Shown piece after piece: positions 50 through 15,288 of a DNA stretch of 24,833 bases. The DNA lies in UHGV virus genome UHGV-0067666; one strand, written 5' to 3'. The stretch's first letter is position 1. Each line of letters starts with the position of its first letter. The notes under the pieces are model-generated. The model did not search any database. It saw nothing but the letters and a program-made list of their open reading frames with translations, and had not been told where the DNA came from. Origin of the DNA: a virus. The position numbers and the translations under genes were made by a program.

Positions 50-586
50 ATGCGTCGCGCTAACGATCCGCAACGGCGAGAAAAAATTATCCAGGCCACG
101 CTGGAGGCGGTGAAACTTTACGGAATACATGCTGTTACGCACCGCAAAATTGCTACCCTTGCCGGGGTACCGTTGGGATCGATGACCTACTATTTTTCAG
201 GAATTGATGAGTTGTTGCTGGAGGCGTTCAGCAGTTTTACTGAGATTATGTCCCGGCAATATCAGGCATTTTTTAGCGATGTTAGTGATGCTCAAGGCGC
301 ATGCCAGGCTATCACCGATATGATCTACAGCTCACAGGTTGCAACGCCGGATAATATGGAGCTGATGTACCAGCTCTACGCGCTGGCTAGCCGAAAACCG
401 CTATTAAAAACGGTAATGCAAAACTGGATGCAGCGCAGTCAGCAAACGCTCGAACAATGGTTTGAACCCGGAACCGCCCGCGCGCTTGATGCGTTTATTG
501 AGGGGATGACGCTGCATTTTGTCACCGACCGTAAGCCGCTATCGCGCGAGGAGATTTTGAGGATGGTTGAGAGGGTTGCAGGGTAG
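50..586 (+). CDS. rcdA: TetR-family transcriptional regulator (host gene, RcdA/YbjK-like)
   Basis: ORF 20..586 trimmed to ATG at 50 behind GAGAGAGG RBS; N-terminal HTH region typical of TetR proteins; sequence recalled as E. coli YbjK/RcdA, symbol from memory only. Confidence 0.8.
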
Positions 587-603
587 TAGATAAATTTTAG
601 ATA

Positions 604-631
604 ACAAAAAACCCATTTATGTAAATGGGTT
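604..631 (-). terminator. Rho-independent terminator on minus strand (hairpin AACCCATTTA/TAAATGGGTT followed by T-run on minus strand)
   Basis: Perfect 10-bp inverted repeat at 610..631 with A6 at 604..609 on plus strand (U-run on minus); downstream of the minus-strand 89-aa gene and integrase. Confidence 0.5.
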
Positions 632-637
632 AATGAA

Positions 638-669
638 AACAATAAGTTAGATTAAAAACAATAAGTTAG
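638..669. repeat. Direct repeat AACAATAAGTTAG x2 (638..650 and 657..669) in the host-prophage junction; candidate integrase arm or att-associated site
   Basis: Two identical 13-mers 19 bp apart seen directly, between host gene end and prophage genes. Confidence 0.4.
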
Positions 670-736
670 GTTGGTGGTCAGTGGTGGTTATTACGGGGTA
701 ATGCCAACCGCTGCCGCCACTTTGTCGCCACTTGTT

Positions 737-1006
737 TTACCTTAGACGCCAGGGGCCTCTATCTTCAATCTGTTCGACTAACCCCTCCTCTTCTAGTTCA
801 CGCAATAGTGCAACAACCCAATATTGTTGGTTCGAACTTGTTGCTTTCCGTTTTTCTCCCCAATCGAGGCCGCTTAGACGAAATACCTCAGCTTGCTTAA
901 CGCCGTTGCCGTTTTTTTGGGCATCTGGGTGAGTTTTAAGTACGGATAAAGCCAATTCTTTGGCTCTGTTGCGCAATTCCGCTCCCTGATGCTGAAACTT
1001 ATTCAT
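737..1006 (-). CDS. Hypothetical 89-aa protein downstream of integrase (possible winged-helix protein)
   Basis: ORF with GGAG RBS 9 nt upstream of ATG; co-directional with int; no family recognised with confidence. Confidence 0.55.
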   Translation of the reverse strand: MNKFQHQGAELRNRAKELALSVLKTHPDAQKNGNGVKQAEVFRLSGLDWGEKRKATSSNQQYWVVALLRELEEEGLVEQIEDRGPWRLR

Positions 1007-1064
1007 TGATAGTGCTCCATGTGAAAAAAAAGAATATTAGCTCAACAGGGCAAAATACGCATTT

Positions 1065-2096
1065 TCAAAAACTTGCTATTGATGTTGGTAGTGTTGCCAG
1101 CGGATTAAACCGTAATGCAGTTTCCAGGTGATCCGGTGCCAGATGTGCGTAACGCATAGTCATTTTTATATCGTGGTGTCCGAGAATTTTTTGTAAGGCC
1201 AGAATGTTTCCACCCGACATCATGAAGTGCGCCGCAAACGTATGGCGCAGAACGTGTGTCAGTTGACCGCGAGGGAGCACGATAGACGTTTTTTCCATCA
1301 CGGATAAAAATTGAAAATAGCAGTCTGTAAAGAAATTGAACCCATCAAGCGCCATGATCTCTTCGTAAAGCTCTTTACTGATAGGGATGCTTCTGTTTTT
1401 CTTCCCCTTCGTTCTTACAAAGGTAATTCGGTATTTGGTCACCTGTGAGCGGGTAAGATTTACGGCTTCACGCCAACGTGCGCCTGTGCTTAAGCATATC
1501 TTAACTACCAGTGCCAGAATTGGGTCCTGACGTTTGCAATCAGCCAGCAATTCAACAATCTGCTCATGGGTAAGCCATGCCATCTCTTTTTCTGCGATGG
1601 TGAATTTTCGCATGTTCTCCAGTGGGTTCGGATACGACCATTCGCCCAGACGGGATAGTTCGCTAAAAACACTACTTAGATAGCTTTGCTCCAGGTTAAT
1701 GGTGACCGGGCTTGCTCCTTTCTTCCATTTCTCGCTGAAGTAGATCTCGCCTGTCAGGCGTTTATCTCGATAGTGGGCAAACATTTTAGAGGTGAGATCG
1801 GTTGCAAGAGGATTGCCCAGAGCGTCAACCATCAACAGCAATTTGTCATAGACATGCTGCCCAGCTGTCAGAGATTTACCATGTAGTTTGAACCATAGTT
1901 CAACCACGTCTTTCAGTGTTCGACGATCCACTGATTCACCCAGCCAGGGCTTTGCTTCGGTTTCTTCCATCGTGTGGCGCTCAAAAGCCAGAGCTTCGCC
2001 TTTGGTGGCGAATTGTTTACGCACACGACGCCCACTACGTCCGGCGGGGTAACATTCGCAAAGCCATTTTCCTGTGGTGAGTTTTCGTACTGCCAT
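1065..2096 (-). CDS. int: Tyrosine site-specific integrase, P2/186 Int family
   Basis: ORF 1065..2174 trimmed to internal ATG (MAVRKLTTGKW...), matching the conserved P2-type Int N-terminus; C-terminal catalytic region with R...HxxR...Y pattern (LRHTFAAH, MRYAHL). Confidence 0.9.
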   Translation of the reverse strand: MAVRKLTTGKWLCECYPAGRSGRRVRKQFATKGEALAFERHTMEETEAKPWLGESVDRRTLKDVVELWFKLHGKSLTAGQHVYDKLLLMVDALGNPLATDLTSKMFAHYRDKRLTGEIYFSEKWKKGASPVTINLEQSYLSSVFSELSRLGEWSYPNPLENMRKFTIAEKEMAWLTHEQIVELLADCKRQDPILALVVKICLSTGARWREAVNLTRSQVTKYRITFVRTKGKKNRSIPISKELYEEIMALDGFNFFTDCYFQFLSVMEKTSIVLPRGQLTHVLRHTFAAHFMMSGGNILALQKILGHHDIKMTMRYAHLAPDHLETALRFNPLATLPTSIASF

Positions 2097-2282
2097 AAAA
2101 AATGCCCTCCAATAGAGAGCATTTTTACTGTATGTATAACCAGTGTCAATGTATGAAATCTTGCGACCATACATCTCACTGAAGCCATAATGAAGTTGGC
2201 TATTTTTTGCTATGTGAGTATGTAACTTTTGCGGTTAGCCTGCGGCTCATTGTTATATTAGGCGCAGATATAAAAGCAAAGT

Positions 2283-2474
2283 TTATCGTGATTTTTTAGT
2301 ACAGATTTTTTTGGATTTACTAATAGTTCCATCATTGCAAACAAATTTTCCATCGGAGGTACAGTGAGATACACCACCCTTTTTCCCAGAACAAGGATAA
2401 TTTTTAGCATAGGTAGTTAGTGGGCTTAATAACAAAGAGCATGATAAAACCACAAAAAATACTTTACCAAGCAT
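2283..2474 (-). CDS. Small secreted cationic cysteine-containing peptide (signal peptide plus ~40-aa Lys-rich mature region with 4 Cys)
   Basis: GGAGG RBS 8 nt upstream of ATG; N-terminal hydrophobic signal with AxA-like site (TYA-KN); AT-rich codon usage; lies between cI and int. Confidence 0.6.
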
Positions 2475-2489
2475 AGTTTCCTCCCGGTA

Positions 2490-3059
2490 TTATCTAACAT
2501 ATTTAACTGTTAAACTTATAATTTTTCCAATTATTTCAACATCTTCTATCTTGCAGTCGAAGGCTCTGTTTCCACCTTCAACGAAGATTCTTCCACCGGG
2601 TAAACGAGTAATGTCGCGGATTGTTATCTCGCCATCAATACTTATTACCCATTTACCATCACGTATATCATCAAATTCTTTATCACAAATAAATTCAGAA
2701 TTGTTATCTGTGATGACAAAAGGTTTTTTAAACGTAGAGGGTAGAAATCCCTTATCAAAAATATAAAAACCGTCTTCACGCAAGGCACCATCAGATAATA
2801 CATATTTAGCAACTTCCATAGTATTTGTATTACCTGAAGTTTGCTTTGAACCATGTCCAGTTGTGAGCCAATTAAGCGAGGTGCCCGTTTCAAGGGCGCA
2901 CTGGATTACCCATTCTGCTGGGAATGAGTCACGCATGTAGCGTGTGGCGAGTGTACTTTTAGAGATTCCTAAATGATCGCACAACGCCTGTCGAGTTTTG
3001 AATCCATAAGCTTCTACCATGCGCTCTATAGCGCCTCGTCCGCCTTTCTCCAAATTCAT
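2490..3059 (-). CDS. cI: Prophage repressor, phage 186 CI-like (N-terminal HTH, C-terminal oligomerisation domain)
   Basis: ATG at 3059 behind GGAG RBS; ~190 aa, HTH segment TRQALCDHLGISKSTLATRY; position between int and a divergent apl-like gene as in 186. Confidence 0.75.
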   Translation of the reverse strand: MNLEKGGRGAIERMVEAYGFKTRQALCDHLGISKSTLATRYMRDSFPAEWVIQCALETGTSLNWLTTGHGSKQTSGNTNTMEVAKYVLSDGALREDGFYIFDKGFLPSTFKKPFVITDNNSEFICDKEFDDIRDGKWVISIDGEITIRDITRLPGGRIFVEGGNRAFDCKIEDVEIIGKIISLTVKYVR

Positions 3060-3083
3060 GGTCACTCCAAGTGAACTTTTATC

Positions 3084-3112
3084 TTGACGATTTCACTGTG
3101 CGATCGTATGTT
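3084..3112 (+). promoter_or_regulatory. Putative rightward early promoter (TTGACG -17 bp- TATGTT) in the cI/apl divergent region
   Basis: Sigma70-like hexamers with 17-bp spacer seen directly; lies between the divergent repressor and excisionase-like genes. Confidence 0.35.
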
Positions 3113-3184
3113 TATGATGTTCACAAAATACAAACGATCCGTATTCGTCCTGATTAATCATCATTAAACGAGGAATGTTGCATC

Positions 3185-3406
3185 ATGAGACCTAACATTT
3201 CAATCACTCTTACCACGCCTCATGTGACTATTGAACGCTATAGCGAGCTGACAGGGCTGTCCATCGATACCATCAATGACATGTTGGCTGACGGACGCCT
3301 TATCCGTCACCGTCTGCGCAAAGATAAAAAACGCGAAAAAGTGATGATCAACATAGCAGCCATGACCGTTGATGCGCTTTCAGAATGCAATCTAAACCTT
3401 AATTAG
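3185..3406 (+). CDS. apl: Small HTH DNA-binding protein, Apl/Cox-like excisionase/repressor of lysogenic promoter
   Basis: 73-aa ORF divergent from cI, first gene of the rightward operon; HTH-like segment [18 protein letters not shown]; symbol assigned by position. Confidence 0.55.
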
Positions 3407-3438
3407 TTCGATTCTGAAATACATCAGAGGCATTGACC

Positions 3439-3948
3439 ATGTTTGATTACCAAGTTTCCAAACATCCACATTTTGATGAAGCCTGTCGTGCATTCGCACT
3501 GCGCCACAACCTGGTGCAACTGGCAGAACGTGCAGGCATGAATGTGCAGATTCTGCGGAACAAGCTGAACCCAGCTCAACCTCATTTATTAACCGCACCA
3601 GACATCTGGCTGCTTACCGATCTGACTGAGGACTCAACACTGGTAGATGGTTTTCTGGCACAGATTCATTGTCTGCCATGTGTTCCGATTAATGAGGTGG
3701 CAAAAGAGAAACTGCCGCATTACGTCATGAGTGCAACTGCAGAGATAGGACGTGTCGCGGCAGGTGCGGTTTCTGGCGATGTAAAAACCAGTGCAGGCCG
3801 TCGTGATGCGATCAGCAGCATTAACTCTGTAACACGACTGATGGCGCTGGCTGCTGTTTCATTGCAGGCCCGTTTACAGGCTAATCCTGCGATGGCGAGT
3901 GCAGTTGATACCGTGACTGGCCTCGGTGCTTCATTCGGTTTGCTGTGA
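3439..3948 (+). CDS. cII: CII-like lysogeny establishment activator (186 CII-like)
   Basis: ATG at 3439 behind AGAGG RBS; 169 aa; HTH near N-terminus; position directly after apl as in 186. Confidence 0.65.
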
Positions 3949-5843: not shown

Positions 5844-8260
5844 GTCATGCCGATATGAGCGACTCTAGCGGCTTTAACGAGGCCGCTGCAGCATTTTCAT
5901 GGAACGGCCCGAAAAAGGCCATTAACCCTTATCTGGACCCGGCGGAAGTTGCGCCGGTTTCTGCGCTTTCAAACCTGATCACTCTGTACGCTACCGATAA
6001 CGAGCAGGAACAACTGCGCCGCGAGGCACTGAGTGATCAGGTCTGGGAGCGTTATTTCTTTAATGAATCCCGTGATCCTGTCCAGCGCGAAATGGAGCAG
6101 GATAAGCTCATTAGCCGGGCAAAGTTGGCGCATGAGCAGCAGCGTTTTAACCCGGACATGGTCATTCTGGCAGACGTCAGCGCCCAGCCCTCCCATATCA
6201 GCAAGCCGCTGATGCAACGTATTGAATACTTCAGCAGCCTGGGCAGGCCAAAGGCTTATTCCCGCTATTTACGTGAGACGATTAAGCCATGTCTGGAACG
6301 ACTGGAGCATGTACGCGACAGCCAGCTATCTGCATCTTTTCGTTTTATGGCAAGCCATGTAGGGCTGGACGGCCTGCTGATTCTGCCTGAAATGAGTCAG
6401 GATCAGGTGAAACGCCTGTCTACCCTTGTCGCTGCGCATATGAGCATGTGCCTTGACGCAGCTTGTGGTGATTTGTATGCCACCGATGACGTTAAGCCAG
6501 AAGAAATCCGCAAGACATGGGAAAAGGTGGCAGCGGAAACCCTGCGTCTGGATGTCATCCCGCCTGCGTTTGAGCAACTCCGTCGGAAAAGAAACCGCCG
6601 TAAACCCGTGCCCTATGAACTCATTCCGGGTTCGCTGGCGCGTATGTTGTGCGCCGACTGGTGGTACCGGAAATTATGGAAAATGCGTTGCGAATGGCGG
6701 GAAGAGCAGTTGCGTGCTGTCTGCCTGGTCAGCAAAAAAGCATCTCCCTATGTCAGCTATGAAGCCGTGATGCATAAACGTGAGCAGCGCCGCAAGTCAC
6801 TGGAGTTTTTCCGTTCTCATGAACTGGTGAACGAAGAGGGCGACACGCTGGATATGGAAGACGTGGTAAACGCCAGCAGCAGCAACCCGGCGCACCGCCG
6901 CAATGAGATGATGGCCTGTGTTAAAGGTCTGGAGCTTATCGCGGAAATGCGCGGTGACTGCGCCGTTTTCTACACCATTACCTGTCCGTCACGTTTCCAT
7001 TCTACGCTCAATAACGGCAGACCAAACCCAACCTGGACAAATGCGACGGTAAGACAAAGCAGCGATTATCTGGTCGGCATGTTTGCTGCATTTCGTAAGG
7101 CGATGCACAAAGCCGGGTTGCGCTGGTATGGCGTGCGGGTGGCTGAGCCGCATCATGACGGTACAGTTCACTGGCACCTGTTGTGTTTCATGCGCAAAAA
7201 AGACCGCCGCGCCATTACTGCATTGTTGCGTAAGTTTGCCATCCGTGAAGACCGCGAGGAACTGGGTAATAACACTGGTCCACGCTTTAAATCTGAGCTG
7301 ATAAACCCGCGCAAAGGTACGCCAACAAGCTACATCGCGAAATACATCAGTAAGAACATTGACGGGCGTGGTCTGGCTGGCGAGATCAGCAAGGAAACGG
7401 GTAAATCCCTGCGTGATAACGCTGAATACGTTAATGCCTGGGCGTCTCTGCATCGTGTTCAGCAATTCCGCTTCTTTGGCATTCCGGGGCGTCAGGCTTA
7501 CCGTGAACTGCGATTGCTGGCTGGTCAGGCGGCAAGGCAGCAGGGTGACAAAAAAGTAGGTGCGCCGGTACTGGATAACCCGCGCCTTGATGCAATCCTG
7601 GCTGCTGCTGATGCTGGTTGTTTTGCCACCTACATCATGAAGCAGGGCGGCGTACTGGTTCCCCGCAAATATCACCTCATCAGAACTGCTTATGAAATCA
7701 ACGAAGAGCCGACCGCCTATGGCGATCACGGTATTCGTATTTATGGCATCTGGTCACCCATTGCAGAGGGCAAGATCTGCACTCATGCGGTGAAGTGGAA
7801 AATGGTTCGTAAGGCCGTTGACGTTCAGGAGGCGGCAGCCGACCAGGGCGCTTGCGCCCCTTGGACTCGGACTCGTGGCAATAACTGTCCCCTTGCTGAA
7901 AATTTGAACCAACAAGGGAAAGACAAATCAGCTGATGGGGATACCAGAACGGATATCACCCGCATGGATGACAAGGAGTTGCACGATTACCTGCACAGTA
8001 TGAGCAAAAAAGAGCGCCGGGAACTGGCAGCAAGATTACGCCTGGTTAAACCGAAACGGCGTAAAGACTACAAACAGCGAATTACAGAGTATCAGCGTCA
8101 GCAGCTCGTCTATGAACTGAAGTCCAGAGGATTTGATGGCAGCGAGAAAGAGGTCGATTTGCTCCTTCGCGGTGGCAGTATTCCGTCAGGAGCAGGCCTG
8201 CGTATCTTCTATCGGAACCAGCGTTTGCAGGAAGATGATAAGTGGCGGAACCTGTATTAA
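5840..8260 (+). CDS. A: Replication initiation protein A (rolling-circle nicking endonuclease, P2 gpA family)
   Basis: 806 aa; HWHLL metal-binding motif and YIAKYISKN tyrosine motif typical of P2 A-type initiators; position after early operon. Confidence 0.9.
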
Positions 8261-8968: not shown

Positions 8969-9688
8969 ATGACAACTATTAACAAGCATGGGTTATCTAG
9001 AACAATTCCTGAACCTGTAAAACTGGAGGTAAGGCAGCGCTGTGGCTTTGGTTGCGTTGTTTGTGCTTCTCCCATTGTTGAGTATGAGCATGTAATTCCC
9101 ACATACGCTGATGCAAAGGAGCACTCTCCAAATGCAATAGCACTACTTTGTCCTACGTGCCATGCGAAAGTAACGAAACGTCTTTACTCTAAAGAGAAAA
9201 TAATTAAAGCAATGGAATCTCCTGCAGCCTTACAAAAAGGGAATGTGGCCGATATATTGGACTTTTCTGATAGGCATCCAACAATAATATTTGGTGGTGC
9301 GACGTTTGAATCCTGTACTGTACCAATAATGTTTCAAAATGAGCCATTGTTAACCATTGAAAAAGAAAATAATGCTTTTCTTATTTCGGGTAAATTTTAC
9401 GATAGTCAAGGTATTGTTAATCTTGAATTAATTAAGAATGAGTGGGTTTGTAGTGCAAGGCATTGGGATGTTCAGGTTGTTGGTCCTAGAATAACTATTA
9501 TAGAAAAAAGGAAAGGTCCTCGTTTAATTATTAAAGTTGATGCGCCTGAAAGATTGATTGTGGAAAGATTAGATATGTTGGTTAAGGGGACTCGGATTGT
9601 AGGAGACGAACACAAGCTAAGAGTAGGTCCACATCAATTTCACAATTGTGGAGTTTCAAATTGCAATATTGGTTTCTGCTTTGGCTAA
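8969..9688 (+). CDS. HNH-endonuclease domain protein with uncharacterised C-terminal domain (~150 aa)
   Basis: N-terminal CGFGCVVC...EYEHVIP...NAIALLCPTCHAK, a CxxC...EH...N...CxxCH HNH signature; AT-rich codon usage unlike the neighbouring backbone. Confidence 0.7.
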   Translation: MTTINKHGLSRTIPEPVKLEVRQRCGFGCVVCASPIVEYEHVIPTYADAKEHSPNAIALLCPTCHAKVTKRLYSKEKIIKAMESPAALQKGNVADILDFSDRHPTIIFGGATFESCTVPIMFQNEPLLTIEKENNAFLISGKFYDSQGIVNLELIKNEWVCSARHWDVQVVGPRITIIEKRKGPRLIIKVDAPERLIVERLDMLVKGTRIVGDEHKLRVGPHQFHNCGVSNCNIGFCFG

Positions 9689-9889: not shown

Positions 9890-9991
9890 CGCGCGCTAAC
9901 TCATAAATCCTAGATTATTAGTGGATTTATCTCATTGAAATGTGCACTATTCCCAGCATTGAGTTGTACCAGATGTCTTTATGGAGGGACT

Positions 9992-11758
9992 GTGGCTTTT
10001 GTAACTGATATTCGGCTTGAAGATAATGCTATTGCTGCACCTGCGACAGCACAGGTTATGGCTCAGAGGCTAGGATCTGTATTACGTAAGAGATATGAAG
10101 AATTCATCCATAAAAGAGAGTGTGCACCAGGCCAAGCAGACTATGATGTAAAAATGGCTAGCAGGGCTTTAGCTGCATTCACTATGTATCAGTTAGGATG
10201 TGTGGATGATAAGTATGCAGGGGAGTCTGTATGTGATAGTAGTGAAGATGGTGGTATAGATGGAATAGCAATCAACCATAACGAAAAAATCGTTGTTGTT
10301 GTTCAATCAAAATTTCACCAATCGGGAAACGGCACTTGGACAAGAGCCGATTTTATGTGTTTTAAGGATGCTTGTGAGAAGCTACAAAGTGAAAGATACG
10401 AATTATTTGATTCCATATTGCAAAATAAAAGCGGGGAAATAAGTGCGGCTTTAAGTAGTTTTGAATACAAGTTCATCTTTGCGATGGCGCATACAGGTAA
10501 AAAAGGTGCTGCAGAGGAAATATTAAATGATATGCGGGAATGGCAATATCAATTAAACGCTGCAGCTTTTACACCTGAGGATGAGCCTAAAGAGAACTGG
10601 GGATTTCAGGTTCATTTAATATCCTCTGAAGATATGATGCATTGGTTACAGAATGGCTCTCGAAATCAAATTGATCTTAACAGGGTTGAAATTGAGCGTT
10701 TTGGATTTTTGAATGAACCATATCAAGCTTTTTACGGGGCTATTAGTGGTGATCAAGTTGCAGAATGGTGGGAAGAGCATGGTGCTCGATTATTTACAAA
10801 AAACATAAGGAATATGCTTGGTAAAACAGAAGTGAATGAGGAAATAAAAAAGACAGCTATAGATAATCCTGATATGTTTTGGTTTTATAATAATGGGATT
10901 ACTGTACTGGTTAAGGAAGTTGTTCCTCATAGACGAAACGCAGCTCCTAATATAGAGAGAGGGATTTTTGATTTTCGTGATGTAAGTGTCATTAATGGTG
11001 CACAAACAGTCAGTAGTATTGGCGCATGTAAAGATGCGCTTGGTGAAAACATATATAGACTCAAAGTGCCAGCTAGATTCATTGTTATAGATGATGATAC
11101 TGATAATTTAACTGCAAATGCAATTACAAAAGCTAACAATTTCCAAAATAGAGTATTGGGAAGAGATTTTGCATCGCAGCAGGCAGATCAACATAGATTG
11201 GCAAGGGAGTTAGTGCTTGAAGGATATCAATATCAGTTACTAAGAACAGATGAAGATCATTCACAGACAAATACGAAAGTCATTGACTTGGATGAGGCGC
11301 TCAATGCACTCGCATGTTTAAGTAAAAATAATACGGTTGTATCGACACTAAAATCAAATCGCGGTAGGTTTTTTGAAAATTTTGAAGGCTCTCTATATAA
11401 AACTATTTTCAATCCAAGATTAAGTGGTTTAAAACTTATCAATACTGTTCTACATTTTAGAGTTATAGATAAGTTGATCGGTAAAACATTACTATCAGTA
11501 GATAAAACGACCCATAGTCGCAAGCATTTAATTATTACGCATGGTAATAGATACTATGCGTCTGTACTATTGAGCAACGTTTCTGGGATACATAATAGCT
11601 CAGAAATTCTTGTTCCAGATGAAAAAAATCTTTCCGAAGAATTAAGTGCATTAATTCAACGTGCTGAAGAGTACATTGAAGATAATTACCCGAATGCCTA
11701 TCCGGCAAGATTTTTTGCAAATCCAACGAAAATACAAGAGTTATACGATAATGTTTAA
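9992..11758 (+). CDS. AIPR-like (abortive infection phage resistance family) protein with N-terminal PD-(D/E)xK-like nuclease motif
   Basis: ORF 9935..11758 (TTG); likely start GTG 9992 behind GGAGGG, or ATG 10058; motif DGGIDGIAINHNEKIVVVVQSKF resembles a D...(E/Q)xK nuclease core; later NGITVL and INGAQT motifs recalled as AIPR-typical; AT-rich. Confidence 0.65.
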   Translation: MAFVTDIRLEDNAIAAPATAQVMAQRLGSVLRKRYEEFIHKRECAPGQADYDVKMASRALAAFTMYQLGCVDDKYAGESVCDSSEDGGIDGIAINHNEKIVVVVQSKFHQSGNGTWTRADFMCFKDACEKLQSERYELFDSILQNKSGEISAALSSFEYKFIFAMAHTGKKGAAEEILNDMREWQYQLNAAAFTPEDEPKENWGFQVHLISSEDMMHWLQNGSRNQIDLNRVEIERFGFLNEPYQAFYGAISGDQVAEWWEEHGARLFTKNIRNMLGKTEVNEEIKKTAIDNPDMFWFYNNGITVLVKEVVPHRRNAAPNIERGIFDFRDVSVINGAQTVSSIGACKDALGENIYRLKVPARFIVIDDDTDNLTANAITKANNFQNRVLGRDFASQQADQHRLARELVLEGYQYQLLRTDEDHSQTNTKVIDLDEALNALACLSKNNTVVSTLKSNRGRFFENFEGSLYKTIFNPRLSGLKLINTVLHFRVIDKLIGKTLLSVDKTTHSRKHLIITHGNRYYASVLLSNVSGIHNSSEILVPDEKNLSEELSALIQRAEEYIEDNYPNAYPARFFANPTKIQELYDNV

Positions 11759-11761
11759 ACT

Positions 11762-11788
11762 AAAGGGAGGTTGCCTCCCTTTTTTTTA
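11762..11788 (+). terminator. Rho-independent terminator (AAAGGGAGG-ttg-CCTCCC + T8)
   Basis: 6-bp GC stem, 3-nt loop, run of 8 T, immediately after the stop of the AIPR-like gene and abutting the 3' end of the convergent portal gene. Confidence 0.75.
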
Positions 11789-11789
11789 A

Positions 11790-12818
11790 TTAGAAATGGT
11801 ATTCTTGGAATTCAATAACACCTTCTTCTATGAAATTGTTTATTTCTTGTAATCTTTTTTGCAATGGCAATAATTCATTACGTACAAATACTTTACTCGC
11901 CTTCTCTACATCTCCAAAGCCCCCAACATTATTAGGCATTATCCCCATCATTTGCGGCGGCACACGGTGTGCCGCCATCATGTCGTCCCGACTCACGTTC
12001 TTGATATTCAGAAACTCATCCTTCGCCGCGACTTCTGACAACGGGATAATCTGAAGCCCGTCCTTTTTGCCGTTAGGAGAGTACATAAACAGGTTGCGGA
12101 AGTTGCCTGGCCCTTTGGCGCTTTTCATTGCGTTGCGGAGGTTGTTCACATCTTCTTGGTTCTGCGCGGCATCGGTCATGTACATGATGAAACCTGCATG
12201 GCTGCCGTTGATGTAATACTTACGGCGGAACAGTGTGGCGGACTCGTTGAGCAGGGCTGACGGGATGGCAGAAAGATAACCTGGCAGGCCGTAGATCTCC
12301 TGGTTGATGTCCGGTTCCATCAGATGAAAAATGCTGCCTTTCGTGAACTGATACGGCTGGGCTGTCATACCGTATTGCACAAACCAGTAGGTATCCAGGT
12401 CTAATCCGCGTCGGGTGTATTTTGCCAAAGCTGGCTCAAGGGCGATAACTTCACCAAAGCGGTTCGTGCGTTTCTCCAGGTAGGCGTTACCAAATACCAG
12501 ATAGTCCTGCACAAAACGCGAAAAAGCCTGCTGGCTAAGCAGCGGATGAGGGATATAGGTACTGGTCAGAATGTTGCACTTTACTGCAATCGGGGAACTG
12601 TGATGCACGGCGGCGCGGAAGGTGCGCGCCAGTCCATTAAAGCTGACGGGCGGCTCATACCAGCGATCCATCTGTACGCATTCCACATAGTCCAGCAGTT
12701 CGCGGCGGTCCAGCACGGGGATGGGATCACCAAAGCTGAAAGCCTCAGCCGTTGGGCCGTTGCTTGGTTTTGTGTCGTGATCAACTGTTACCTGCTTGGT
12801 GTTTTTACGTTTGCTCAT
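11790..12818 (-). CDS. Q: Portal protein (P2 gpQ family)
   Basis: 342 aa, size and position as P2 Q, immediately downstream of terminase-region genes on minus strand; start ATG overlaps stop of upstream ORF (ATGA). Confidence 0.8.
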   Translation of the reverse strand: MSKRKNTKQVTVDHDTKPSNGPTAEAFSFGDPIPVLDRRELLDYVECVQMDRWYEPPVSFNGLARTFRAAVHHSSPIAVKCNILTSTYIPHPLLSQQAFSRFVQDYLVFGNAYLEKRTNRFGEVIALEPALAKYTRRGLDLDTYWFVQYGMTAQPYQFTKGSIFHLMEPDINQEIYGLPGYLSAIPSALLNESATLFRRKYYINGSHAGFIMYMTDAAQNQEDVNNLRNAMKSAKGPGNFRNLFMYSPNGKKDGLQIIPLSEVAAKDEFLNIKNVSRDDMMAAHRVPPQMMGIMPNNVGGFGDVEKASKVFVRNELLPLQKRLQEINNFIEEGVIEFQEYHF

Positions 12819-13522
12819 TCTGCCAGTTCCTTGCTAGCGAGAGGCCATTCGCACATAAACAGCATTTTCCAGTCCTCTTCTGATAATTCTTTTTTCATAT
12901 CGTTCAGCCAGTTATCAGTAAACAACATTGCTCCAGATGCTGCTGCGTCATCTGCGGTGAACACCATGCTGGTTACGCTGTTGTTTCTGCATAGCTTTTT
13001 ATATTCCTGCCGTGCCTCTGGGTTAGGGCTGGGAGTGGTGTAGTAGGTGGCGTGGTAGTGTGCGTGCATAGAAATCCCTTTAGCGATGGCAATCATATTT
13101 CTCGGTGATTCACTCCAGGCATACTCTGACACGTAAACATTTCCACTGAGTGCGGAGGTGAGACTGCTGAGGTCGGTAAAATAAATTACTGCACCATTCG
13201 GAAGCTCCAGATGACTTTTGCCTGATTTTATTTTTCCAGTGTGCGTATAAGCTGCGGCCTGGCTTAAGAATGCTGATACACAGGCTTTGATTGCCTGCGC
13301 AGATGCTGTGCTGCAGCAGAGGAAAATCTGGTTACGCCCGGTATGCAGTGCATCGTTCAGGGCTTCATAGGAAAAAAAGAAATCCGCGCCTGCCTGGCGC
13401 ATTTTTGTGAGTACACGGTTTCTACTCTTTGGGCCAGTGTTCCACTCATACTGGTAAGCAAAGAAAAAGCTATCCACCGGAAGTCCCGCGATAGTCATGA
13501 GGTTAGTTGGGATTGGGGGCAT
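12815..13522 (-). CDS. Terminase large-subunit ATPase-domain paralogue (235 aa), extra gene between P and Q
   Basis: Aligns to the central region of the adjacent 588-aa terminase (e.g. FFFSYEALNDALHTGRNQIFLCCSTAS vs FYFAREALIDALLTGRNQIFLSASKAQ; GNVYVSEYAW vs GNLYLDEYFW; YYTTPS vs YFSTPS); GGAG RBS; start overlaps P stop (TGATG) and stop overlaps Q start (ATGA). Confidence 0.7.
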   Translation of the reverse strand: MPPIPTNLMTIAGLPVDSFFFAYQYEWNTGPKSRNRVLTKMRQAGADFFFSYEALNDALHTGRNQIFLCCSTASAQAIKACVSAFLSQAAAYTHTGKIKSGKSHLELPNGAVIYFTDLSSLTSALSGNVYVSEYAWSESPRNMIAIAKGISMHAHYHATYYTTPSPNPEARQEYKKLCRNNSVTSMVFTADDAAASGAMLFTDNWLNDMKKELSEEDWKMLFMCEWPLASKELAE

Positions 13523-15288
13523 CAAAAAATCTCCACAATATTGCTGGTATTGGCGGATTCGCCCTGCAGCGGTTCGTTAAACAGTGCGTGCATCGTTGCC
13601 CAGGCCAGATCGGCGTGGCTGGCTTCTTCGCTGCGGCTGGCTTCATAGGTTGGGCGGTTGCCGCTCGCGGTGGTGGCGCGACGGATTGCCATGAATGACT
13701 GCGCTATGTCGGTGTGTCCGGCGTCAAACTCCAGACGGCGGTGGCTGATAATGTCGTAGGCCTTGAGTACCAGGGCGTTTTTAACATTGGGGTTATAGAC
13801 AAACTCCCGGACGGCTGGAAAAAACGCTTTCACGTTCTCGTAAACCCCGTGGCCGACACCTGTCGAGTCGATGCCGATGTAGGTCACGTTGTACTGCTCG
13901 GTCAGTTTTTTGATGGCGTCAGCCTGGGCGCGGAAGTCCATCCCACGCCACTGGTGACGCTCAAGAATGCGGAACTTACCACCAGGCACGGCTGGCGGTG
14001 CCACCACTACGCATCCGGCGCTGTCGCCGTTTTGCGTACCTTTTGCCGGGTCATAACCGATCCACACTTCGCGCCAGCCAAACGGGCGCAGAGCCAGTGC
14101 ATGAAAGTCGGTCCAGACTTCCCAGCTGTCCACCATGCACGCCTGCAGCTCGCTGAGCGGGAACACGGACGCGAGATCGTCCACAAACTCGCACATCAGC
14201 AGGTTCTGGTATTCGTCCGGGCTGTACTCCATGCGCAACTGGTCAAGGTCGAACAGGTTACAGCCGCCGCGCACCGCATCTTCCACGGTGACTATCTGGC
14301 GGTATTGCCCGTCTGCGCACAGCAGGCCGGGGGCCAGATTGCTGTGGGACAGGTCGATGTCCACCTTGTCGGCCTTGTTGCGCCCACGGTTGAACAGCGC
14401 ACCGGACCAGAACGGATAAGCACTGTGTGTCAGGCTGGATGGCGTGGAAAAATAGGTTTGTCGCCATTTTTTGTGAATAGCCATACCGGAAGCCACTTTG
14501 CGCAGCTCCTGGAATTTCGGTATCCAGAAATATTCATCCAGATACAGGTTGCCGTGATAACTCTGGGCCGTGCGGGCATTGGTGCCGAGGAAGTAAAGCG
14601 TGGCTCCGTTAGGAAGCACCATCGGATCGCCTTTCAGCTCCACCTCGACTTCTTTGGCGAAGTCTATGATGTACTGCTTAAAGACGTGAGCCTGTGCCTT
14701 ACTGGCAGAAAGGAAAATCTGGTTACGTCCGGTAAGCAGGGCGTCAATCAGGGCTTCACGGGCAAAGTAAAAGGTCGCGCCGATCTGGCGTGACTTCAGC
14801 AGGTTGCGGATGCGGTTGGTTTTTCCGGCTTCCCACCAGTGGCGCTGGTAGTTGAACATGGAGGAATGGAAAATTTCTTCCAGCTTCTCAATCTGTTCAT
14901 CGGTGAAAACATTCTTTTCCGGCTGACGGCGCGGGCCTTTGTTGCGGTTGGCGACGTTAGGGTTTAAGTCGGCTTCGTTACCGCCATTGTTAAACTTGCC
15001 GATCCGCGCGTGGCGCTCCGACTGGCGCGCCAGCAGGTCAATTTCTTTGAAATCTTTCCCTTCTTTGTGCTCCTTCATAATGAGCTGGCAGTAGCGTGCG
15101 GCGGTGGTGAGCTGCATCTGATCCAGCGGCCCATAGTCACCCCACTTGTCGCGTTTTTTCCAGCTGTGAACGGTTGCAACTTTCTCGCCCAGCATTTCAG
15201 CAATGCGGGCTACGCGGTATCCCTGAAAGTACAGCAGCATGGCCTGCCGACGGGGATCGAGATCTGCGGGTGTCAGTGTGGTGTTCAT
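13522..15288 (-). CDS. P: Terminase large subunit (ATPase/nuclease, P2 gpP family)
   Basis: 588 aa, size as P2 P; ATPase-like core with hhhhDE motif LYLDEY; divergent from the scaffold operon as in P2. Confidence 0.9.
   Translation of the reverse strand: MNTTLTPADLDPRRQAMLLYFQGYRVARIAEMLGEKVATVHSWKKRDKWGDYGPLDQMQLTTAARYCQLIMKEHKEGKDFKEIDLLARQSERHARIGKFNNGGNEADLNPNVANRNKGPRRQPEKNVFTDEQIEKLEEIFHSSMFNYQRHWWEAGKTNRIRNLLKSRQIGATFYFAREALIDALLTGRNQIFLSASKAQAHVFKQYIIDFAKEVEVELKGDPMVLPNGATLYFLGTNARTAQSYHGNLYLDEYFWIPKFQELRKVASGMAIHKKWRQTYFSTPSSLTHSAYPFWSGALFNRGRNKADKVDIDLSHSNLAPGLLCADGQYRQIVTVEDAVRGGCNLFDLDQLRMEYSPDEYQNLLMCEFVDDLASVFPLSELQACMVDSWEVWTDFHALALRPFGWREVWIGYDPAKGTQNGDSAGCVVVAPPAVPGGKFRILERHQWRGMDFRAQADAIKKLTEQYNVTYIGIDSTGVGHGVYENVKAFFPAVREFVYNPNVKNALVLKAYDIISHRRLEFDAGHTDIAQSFMAIRRATTASGNRPTYEASRSEEASHADLAWATMHALFNEPLQGESANTSNIVEIF

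Follow-up and report, generated by a model that had tools for sequence, protein, structure and literature searches.

The window analysed here, a stretch of 24,833 nucleotides (nt) from the virus genome UHGV-0067666, carries a 186-like prophage with CI, CII and Fil genes. In it, an open reading frame (ORF) of 235 amino acids (aa) lies between the genes for the large terminase subunit (TerL) and the portal protein. This ORF, which encodes a paralogue of the TerL ATPase domain, is the subject of the present analysis. The surrounding genes and signals are as follows.

13522..15288, minus strand: large terminase subunit TerL (homologue of P2 gpP and 186 Orf12), 588 aa, assigned by Pfam
12815..13522, minus strand: 235-aa stand-alone paralogue of the TerL ATPase domain, in the slot of phage 186 gene W and of the 'GAD/SE' allele class, assigned by sequence and fold
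11790..12818, minus strand: portal protein (homologue of P2 gpQ and 186 Orf2), 342 aa, with a Phage_portal domain, assigned by Pfam
13520..13536, minus strand: translational-coupling junction GGAGATTTTTTGATG, made up of a Shine-Dalgarno sequence, the TerL stop TGA and the paralogue ATG
12815..12818, minus strand: ATGA, the paralogue stop overlapping the portal start, resembling the 186 W/portal junction
11762..11782, flagged on the plus strand: terminator-like hairpin of 9 pairs, in the gap between the portal 3' end and a convergent AIPR gene

The initial annotation had placed an ORF between TerL and portal with TGATG and ATGA overlaps, and both junctions were confirmed, as was the adjacency of the corresponding genes P and Q in phage P2. 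The ORF starts with ATG and has an in-frame TTG one codon upstream; its ATG shares 1 nt with the TerL TGA, and GGAG lies 9 nt upstream. The same 1-nt overlap between TerL stop and paralogue start was found in every analysed locus containing TerL (about 85, from Escherichia, Citrobacter, Pantoea, Phytobacter, Yersinia, Serratia, Buttiauxella and IMG/VR contigs). At the other end of the gene set, the hairpin at 11762..11782 has a T-run downstream on the plus strand and an A-run upstream. Since it occupies the position of tW in 186 and tQ in P2, it is the probable end of a TerL-paralogue-portal late operon. No sigma70-like promoter was found in or just before the paralogue ORF, and independent expression of the paralogue in the lysogen from a promoter at the ORF was therefore rejected. 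A candidate internal terminator at 13385-13401, a hairpin followed by a T-run on both strands, was rejected as well because it is not conserved among alleles; the codons for R-Q-x-G-A and F-F-F produce it incidentally, and it is probably not a signal. The 3.7-kb TerL-paralogue-portal region is 100% identical to that of E. coli 1008S13 (NZ_CP147053.1), and PGAP names the product of the W-slot gene 'terminase large subunit domain-containing protein'.

The paralogue aligned with the adjacent TerL at 32% identity over 238 columns (BLASTP, E=6e-31), a significant similarity confined to TerL residues 142-368. For the paralogue, Pfam returned Terminase_6N at 3.7e-16 as the sole domain, with no match to Terminase_5 or Terminase_6C. 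The window TerL, which is identical to WP_001098431.1, differs from it in carrying all three domains (Terminase_5 helix-turn-helix (HTH), Terminase_6N ATPase and Terminase_6C nuclease), with the canonical motifs KSRQIGAT and LYLDE. Judged by these domain matches, the paralogue is without the N-terminal HTH region and the nuclease domain and so is not a complete large terminase subunit, which bears out its initial description as a truncated TerL-ATPase paralogue. The earlier argument against a recent in-place duplication also held: identity to Peduoviridae TerLs generally is about 31-35%, and the GC content at third codon positions (GC3) is 0.51 for the paralogue, which is thus AT-richer than TerL (0.70) and portal (0.59).

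Structural comparison led to the same assignment. An AlphaFold2 model built from a 28-sequence family alignment (mean pLDDT 81, pTM 0.82) had terminase ATPase domains as all of its closest solved structures, with T4 gp17 at the top (TMq 0.72). Other fold matches were the P74-26 and D6E TerL ATPase domains, Sf6 gp2, HK97 TerL and the Avs3-bound PhiV-1 terminase (8dgc_E). Comparison with predicted viral structures had the same outcome. Sequence searches of PDB chains with the family profile or with TerL gave no match, so that the link to solved structures runs through fold comparison only. The model contains the elements of a terminase ATPase: the Q-motif (F21..Q24), a Walker A formed by strand 35-40, the loop K40-M-R42-Q-A-G45-A46-D47 and helix 46-61, a Walker B strand at 128-132 (V-Y-V-S132-E133) with S132-E133 at its end, and a C-motif in which strand 158-162 is followed by T-P-S (T159-Y-Y-T-T-P-S165).

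The gene had been described as an extra one, which is true relative to P2 but not relative to phage 186, where a homologue, W, fills the slot. The W protein has 248 aa (coding sequence (CDS) 1215..1961 of U32222 / NC_001317; AAC34147.1 / NP_052250.1) and is encoded between Orf12, the P2 P homologue (1961..3730), and Orf2, the P2 Q homologue (196..1218). The original 186 record labels it 'W protein; similar to Orf12'. The match obtained in phage 186 is to this gene and not to TerL. W lies in the B-activated p12 late operon, with the terminator tW at its end; its product matches Terminase_6N and aligns with the window ORF at 32% identity (E=7e-33). Like the window ORF, it sits between P and Q homologues with overlaps of 1 and 4 nt, belongs to a late operon and comprises the ATPase core only. 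The junction of the W 3' end with the portal 5' end and the portal N-terminus also resemble those of the window, whose portal begins MSKRK... as in 186 and unlike the portals of empty-slot prophages. A homologous W in the same slot of 186, together with the 186-like character of the prophage, means that the window gene is not newly inserted. The two proteins nonetheless differ: 186 W is canonical (KSRQIGAT, VYLDE, FTSPS) whereas the window protein has GAD and VSE, 186 W retains a lid insertion of ~15-25 aa which the window protein is without, and their identity is no higher than that between the window ORF and TerL. On our reading, the window ORF belongs to the gene-W family of phage 186, probably as one of its divergent alleles.

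Further members of the family occupy the same position elsewhere. Matches in 186, PSP3, EtG, Midge and two Y. enterocolitica phages lie in the W slot or the corresponding position, and the slot context was confirmed for 186 and vB_YenM_201.16 among them. More distant occupants are listed here by their end-of-Walker-A and Walker-B residues.

P0064, W slot confirmed in a distant P2-like genome: 253 aa, GAD/SE, long form
P0115, W slot of a distant P2-like genome: 257 aa, GMS/DE
P0069, on a 1.5-kb contig where the flanking, unannotated ORFs overlap it in the same pattern: GAT/DE
P0063, W slot of a distant P2-like genome: GCD/PN

P0061 is similar to the slot intermediate P0064, by sequence comparison only. 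The family profile detected the 186-W-like protein P0067 at 3e-50, slightly above the best TerL at 3e-43. In a neighbour-joining (NJ) tree all short proteins fell together, apart from the true TerLs, with backbone bootstrap values below 40; 186 W grouped with the long-form GAD proteins (bootstrap 60), and the grouping of the window protein with 186 W was weakly supported. Given this weak backbone, a single origin of the short TerL paralogues is likely rather than proven.

A further property of the window protein concerns its predicted Mg site. In P-loop NTPases the hydroxyl of the Walker-A Ser or Thr ligates Mg directly, while the Walker-B Asp acts through water and hydrogen-bonds the Walker-A residue. 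The paralogue departs from the canonical Ser/Thr end of Walker A and from the hhhhD-E form of Walker B at both places: TerL KSRQIGAT has become KMRQAGAD (Thr to Asp), and TerL GNLYLDEYFW has become GNVYVSEYAW (Asp to Ser). The second change was present as initially annotated; the first, to which it is coupled, and the 186 W homologue were both absent from that annotation. A word-indexed protein search with the paralogue yielded 58 relatives, nearly all of 225-241 aa and with identities down to 33-38%, from Escherichia, Citrobacter, Salmonella, Klebsiella, Leclercia, Phytobacter, Pantoea, Yersinia and Buttiauxella. Across this family F21, Q24, R36, K40, R42, G45, A46, D47, S132, E133, T159 and S165 are invariant, and T162 and P164 nearly so. 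The paralogue thus retains the Q-motif, Lys and Arg of the P-loop, the catalytic Glu and the C-motif.

An exhaustive search of 1.84 billion representatives with a hidden Markov model (HMM) extended this comparison, and all 202 retrieved proteins were aligned to the ATPase-core HMM. Every full-length TerL (61/61) had Thr or Ser in Walker A with DE in Walker B, and the swapped state occurred in 0/61. Walker-A Asp was borne by 64 short proteins, none of which (0/64) kept the Walker-B Asp; their Walker-B pair was SE in 56, PE in 3, AE in 2, and GE, LE and PN in 1 each. As the two aspartates never occur together, the pattern looks like a move of the Mg-site carboxylate from the Walker-B to the Walker-A position rather than like decay. 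The ATPase impairment proposed initially is thus possible but not implied by Asp to Ser, which is half of a conserved pair with Walker-A Thr to Asp; hydrolysis of ATP by the paralogue may be altered or slow.

We compared the divergence of the three genes across loci and found that the paralogue alleles vary without regard to TerL. Identities to the window were as follows.

L026: TerL 100%, paralogue 79%, portal 86%
L066-L068: TerL 94-95%, paralogue 56-60%, portal 86-90%
L075-L090: TerL 84-87%, paralogue 36-41%, portal 72-75%

Paralogue divergence is thus uncoupled from TerL divergence. At the DNA level L026 matches the window at 98-100% over TerL and the opening ~200 nt of the paralogue and at about 72-79% thereafter, with the mosaic breakpoint within the stretch coding for the Walker-A helix. 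The same stretch, ~13309-13399 in the window, is the sole part of the paralogue with DNA similarity to TerL genes (75-80% identity to true TerL genes over ~90 nt, in ~1100 E. coli genomes), and alleles may recombine or undergo gene conversion preferentially here, with each other or with TerL. In E. coli HS (L136, NC_009800.1 926761-932840) the identical TerL, WP_001098431.1, is found with the W slot empty, and the GGAG...TGATG junction starts the portal directly. The slot can therefore be empty, and the GGAG ascribed to the ORF as its own ribosome-binding site, while present, is the ordinary signal that couples TerL to whichever gene follows. Strict co-evolution with TerL was rejected, as an identical TerL occurs with a 100% identical paralogue, a 79% identical one or none; TerL can do without the paralogue, and the two do not co-evolve. 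The paralogue is dispensable for TerL and is an exchangeable accessory gene.

Among E. coli with P2-type P/Q genes, the window allele group was found in 21/~1270 and the 186-W allele in 8/~1270; the set comprised 5,426 complete genomes, and because DNA searches miss more divergent alleles these counts are lower bounds. GAD/SE patterns at the W slot were found in 7/185,579 species-representative genomes. The impression from megablast (20 of 1272 E. coli genomes) that slot insertion is rare was rejected, since megablast saw only the window allele, and divergent alleles including 186 W fill the slot. Carriers that form plaques include 186 and Felsduovirus MLG42, the latter with a 74%-identical GAD/SE allele.

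The ratio of nonsynonymous to synonymous substitution (dN/dS, Nei-Gojobori) was 0.17-0.27 for the paralogue, 0.05-0.08 for TerL and 0.05-0.11 for the portal. The paralogue is thus under purifying selection, at a level relaxed relative to the neighbouring genes. This relaxation, its dispensability for TerL function in other prophages and a truncated or frameshifted copy in phage 500465-1 might be taken to mean that the gene has no function of its own, being left over from an old partial duplication or recombination and retained only for the translational coupling of TerL to portal. We regard this as very improbable: a dN/dS of 0.17-0.27 is far from about 1, length is constant at 225-253 aa, the active-site residues are invariant down to 33% identity, the Walker A and B changes are coupled rather than random, and a related gene is kept at a second locus (below) where it has no coupling role. 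The ORF is a real, selected stand-alone copy of the TerL ATP-binding domain.

In Escherichia phage 500465-1 (L002, NC_049342.1) the W-slot gene encodes a truncated product of 176 aa and the portal gene is broken into two CDSs, a state that reflects either sequencing frameshifts or a decaying prophage.

A sister subfamily of the W-slot proteins is united by the signature KxRQxGAD...GDVYVSEW...WRRTFYSSRS, a length of 218-245 aa and a bootstrap value of 100. Besides two matches that are fragments, 27 complete loci were examined, and in all of these the gene follows the replication gene gpA and is encoded on the early strand. In several loci the gene overlaps the gpA stop. Representative positions are given here.

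L016:5811-6491, minus strand: gpA-side paralogue in a Proteus faecis locus
L019:7001-7681, plus strand: gpA-side paralogue
L105-L131, match at ~6001-6690: gpA-side paralogues

These proteins (P0112, P0085 and related ones) resemble the W-slot proteins in size and in their mostly GAD plus [S/P]E site, and they are the nearest NJ neighbours of the W-slot GAD group, with weak support. They differ in lying on the early strand, in the accessory hotspot between gpA and portal, with TerL and portal directly adjacent in every locus of the subfamily where both are present. Conversely, no second short paralogue was found in any W-slot locus analysed. The mutual exclusion of the two locations suggests that W-slot and gpA-side paralogues are functionally equivalent and delivered at different times.

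Two other neighbouring genes encode P-loop proteins. In the Proteus faecis locus a KAP-family P-loop NTPase of 449 aa (L016:4399-5748, plus strand) adjoins the gpA-side short paralogue, and in E. coli RUT3575 (L138) a 'P-loop NTPase fold protein' adjoins the portal.

Our preferred interpretation, which we put forward tentatively, is that the paralogue is a nucleotide-binding TerL mimic with altered hydrolysis that tunes the assembly or activity of the packaging motor. It would be produced late, through translational coupling within the TerL-portal operon; it would bind ATP and hydrolyse it in an altered or slow manner; it would occupy interfaces of the TerL ATPase domain, either with neighbouring TerL subunits of the ring or with the portal; and it would be an accessory, dispensable subunit that tunes the motor. 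That it binds nucleotide, associates with TerL or portal and affects packaging in any way is inferred. With the TerL ATPase domain (P2 gpP / T4 gp17 N-domain, Terminase_6N) it shares the fold and most signature residues: the Q-motif, catalytic Glu, C-motif and a deviant P-loop with an N-terminal Lys. It differs from that domain in its swapped Mg site, its dispensability and its fast evolution. Without Terminase_5 and Terminase_6C, the mimic would be missing the part that binds TerS and DNA (the N-terminal HTH) and the part that cuts DNA (the nuclease). Degenerate ATPase paralogues are found in other ring machines, namely the clamp-loader delta/delta' and F1 alpha subunits. Like the role proposed here, these are paralogues with a nucleotide-binding fold and changed catalytic residues that serve a regulatory or structural function in a ring, and by this analogy only, a W-type protein could be a member of the TerL ring.

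Several observations weigh against a motor subunit. The identical TerL does without the gene in E. coli HS and has a 79%-identical allele in L026. A known ORF does occur at this position in 186 and relatives, which goes part of the way towards the refuting case named in the initial annotation (a known packaging component there in all P2/186-family genomes), but most P2-like prophages have no W-slot gene. The amino-acid sequence of the paralogue evolves 3-4 times faster than those of TerL and portal. A few other short relatives have no catalytic Glu (DQ, QD, DH, DN, PN), so that catalysis is not a universal requirement of the wider group. Finally, the sister subfamily lies after gpA on the early strand, an odd place for a motor subunit. 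Dispensability, allele shuffling, fast evolution and an early-operon locus are as expected of a conflict gene.

That TerL is a focus of conflict is known from the bacterial sensors Avs1-3, which recognise monomeric, nucleotide-bound terminase, and from the TerI system of Listeria; neither Avs1-3 nor TerI is a TerL paralogue, and no sequence relationship of either to the W-slot protein was found. A serious, though less probable, alternative is that the paralogue serves as a counter-defence decoy or shield, which mimics the nucleotide-bound TerL ATPase and soaks up STAND sensors of the Avs1-3 type or hides monomeric TerL. Such a role would suit the patchy distribution, the shuffling of alleles independently of TerL and the faster protein evolution; the early-strand sister subfamily in the gpA-portal hotspot would be expressed before TerL. 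It would also suit an active site that has conserved its nucleotide-binding residues but has rewired or lost those for catalysis and Mg. Avs sensors target monomers, and Avs3 reportedly recognises TerL as a monomer, along with ATP and the active-site residues of TerL; as noted above, the Avs3-bound terminase 8dgc_E is among the fold matches. However, Avs3 also contacts the nuclease domain, which the paralogue is without, binding to the sensor might itself activate the sensor, and co-translation with TerL at ~1:1 is a weak design for a sponge. The paralogue matched no PADLOC defence model and no NCBIfam model, and the literature searched describes no such decoy. Gene W of 186 was defined genetically, by conditional-lethal head mutants, and such mutations could also be polar on the coupled portal gene; if W is truly essential in laboratory strains, a pure counter-defence role would not explain that. 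The broader view, that P2-like phages keep carboxylate-relocated TerL-ATPase mimics at two mutually exclusive loci and that these act in conflict and not in packaging, we consider unlikely.

The region between gpA and portal is a hotspot with anti-phage cargo (PMC9122126). In the window this old/tin hotspot carries two genes with a low GC3 of 0.26-0.27.

8969-9688, plus strand: HNH-domain ORF
9935-11758, plus strand: AIPR-family protein, with a PADLOC match to AbiU and a weak one to MzaE

On the basis of these matches the HNH and AIPR cargo is probably an anti-phage module. The residence of the sister subfamily in a hotspot so rich in anti-phage genes bears on a further alternative, in which the nuclease-less TerL fragment is an interference weapon that enters and poisons the packaging rings of rival P2-like phages or of P4-type satellites, which use the terminase of their helper. 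Its architecture is that of a dominant negative, with the ATPase core kept and the functional ends removed, its alleles are hypervariable, and prophage packaging blockers that target the terminase do exist (the TerI system, Listeria phages). Yet the W-slot gene, for which no independent promoter was found, is expressed only along with the TerL of its own phage, and a lysogen gains no protection from a product made only late. Moreover, one and the same TerL accompanies different alleles or an empty slot, which gives no sign of a self-immune TerL, and carriers form plaques. We therefore hold the weapon to be improbable, and the poisoning of packaging suggested in the initial annotation was not upheld: the gene is coupled to the phage's own TerL, and the plaque-forming phages 186 and MLG42 carry it.

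The gene itself is not new, having been annotated since the phage 186 genome was sequenced. In the searchable literature, which does not cover the original 186 genetics papers, we found no functional description of the W-slot gene and no mention of the Walker-A/Walker-B aspartate swap, of alleles that vary independently of TerL or of the subfamily downstream of gpA. Our analysis identifies the W-slot gene as a widespread, selected and exchangeable accessory gene of P2-like phages, whose largest allele class has a conserved aspartate swap found in none of the 61 full-length TerLs. This swap is a clean natural test case for how P-loop ATPases coordinate Mg. If the paralogue joins the motor, the motor would be a natural example of a viral packaging ATPase that is heteromeric and contains a regulatory pseudo-subunit. 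If its role is instead in conflict, it would link the bacterial sensing of terminase to a phage countermeasure, and a decoy in particular would be a new class of counter-defence, a pseudo-enzyme copy of the sensed protein itself. The question is readily testable in 186 or P2 genetics.

Two minor observations concern the neighbouring genes. The first ~25 residues of the portal are its most variable part and differ between occupied-slot and empty-slot prophages. In NZ_CP147053 the gene upstream of the AIPR gene is annotated as DUF2971.

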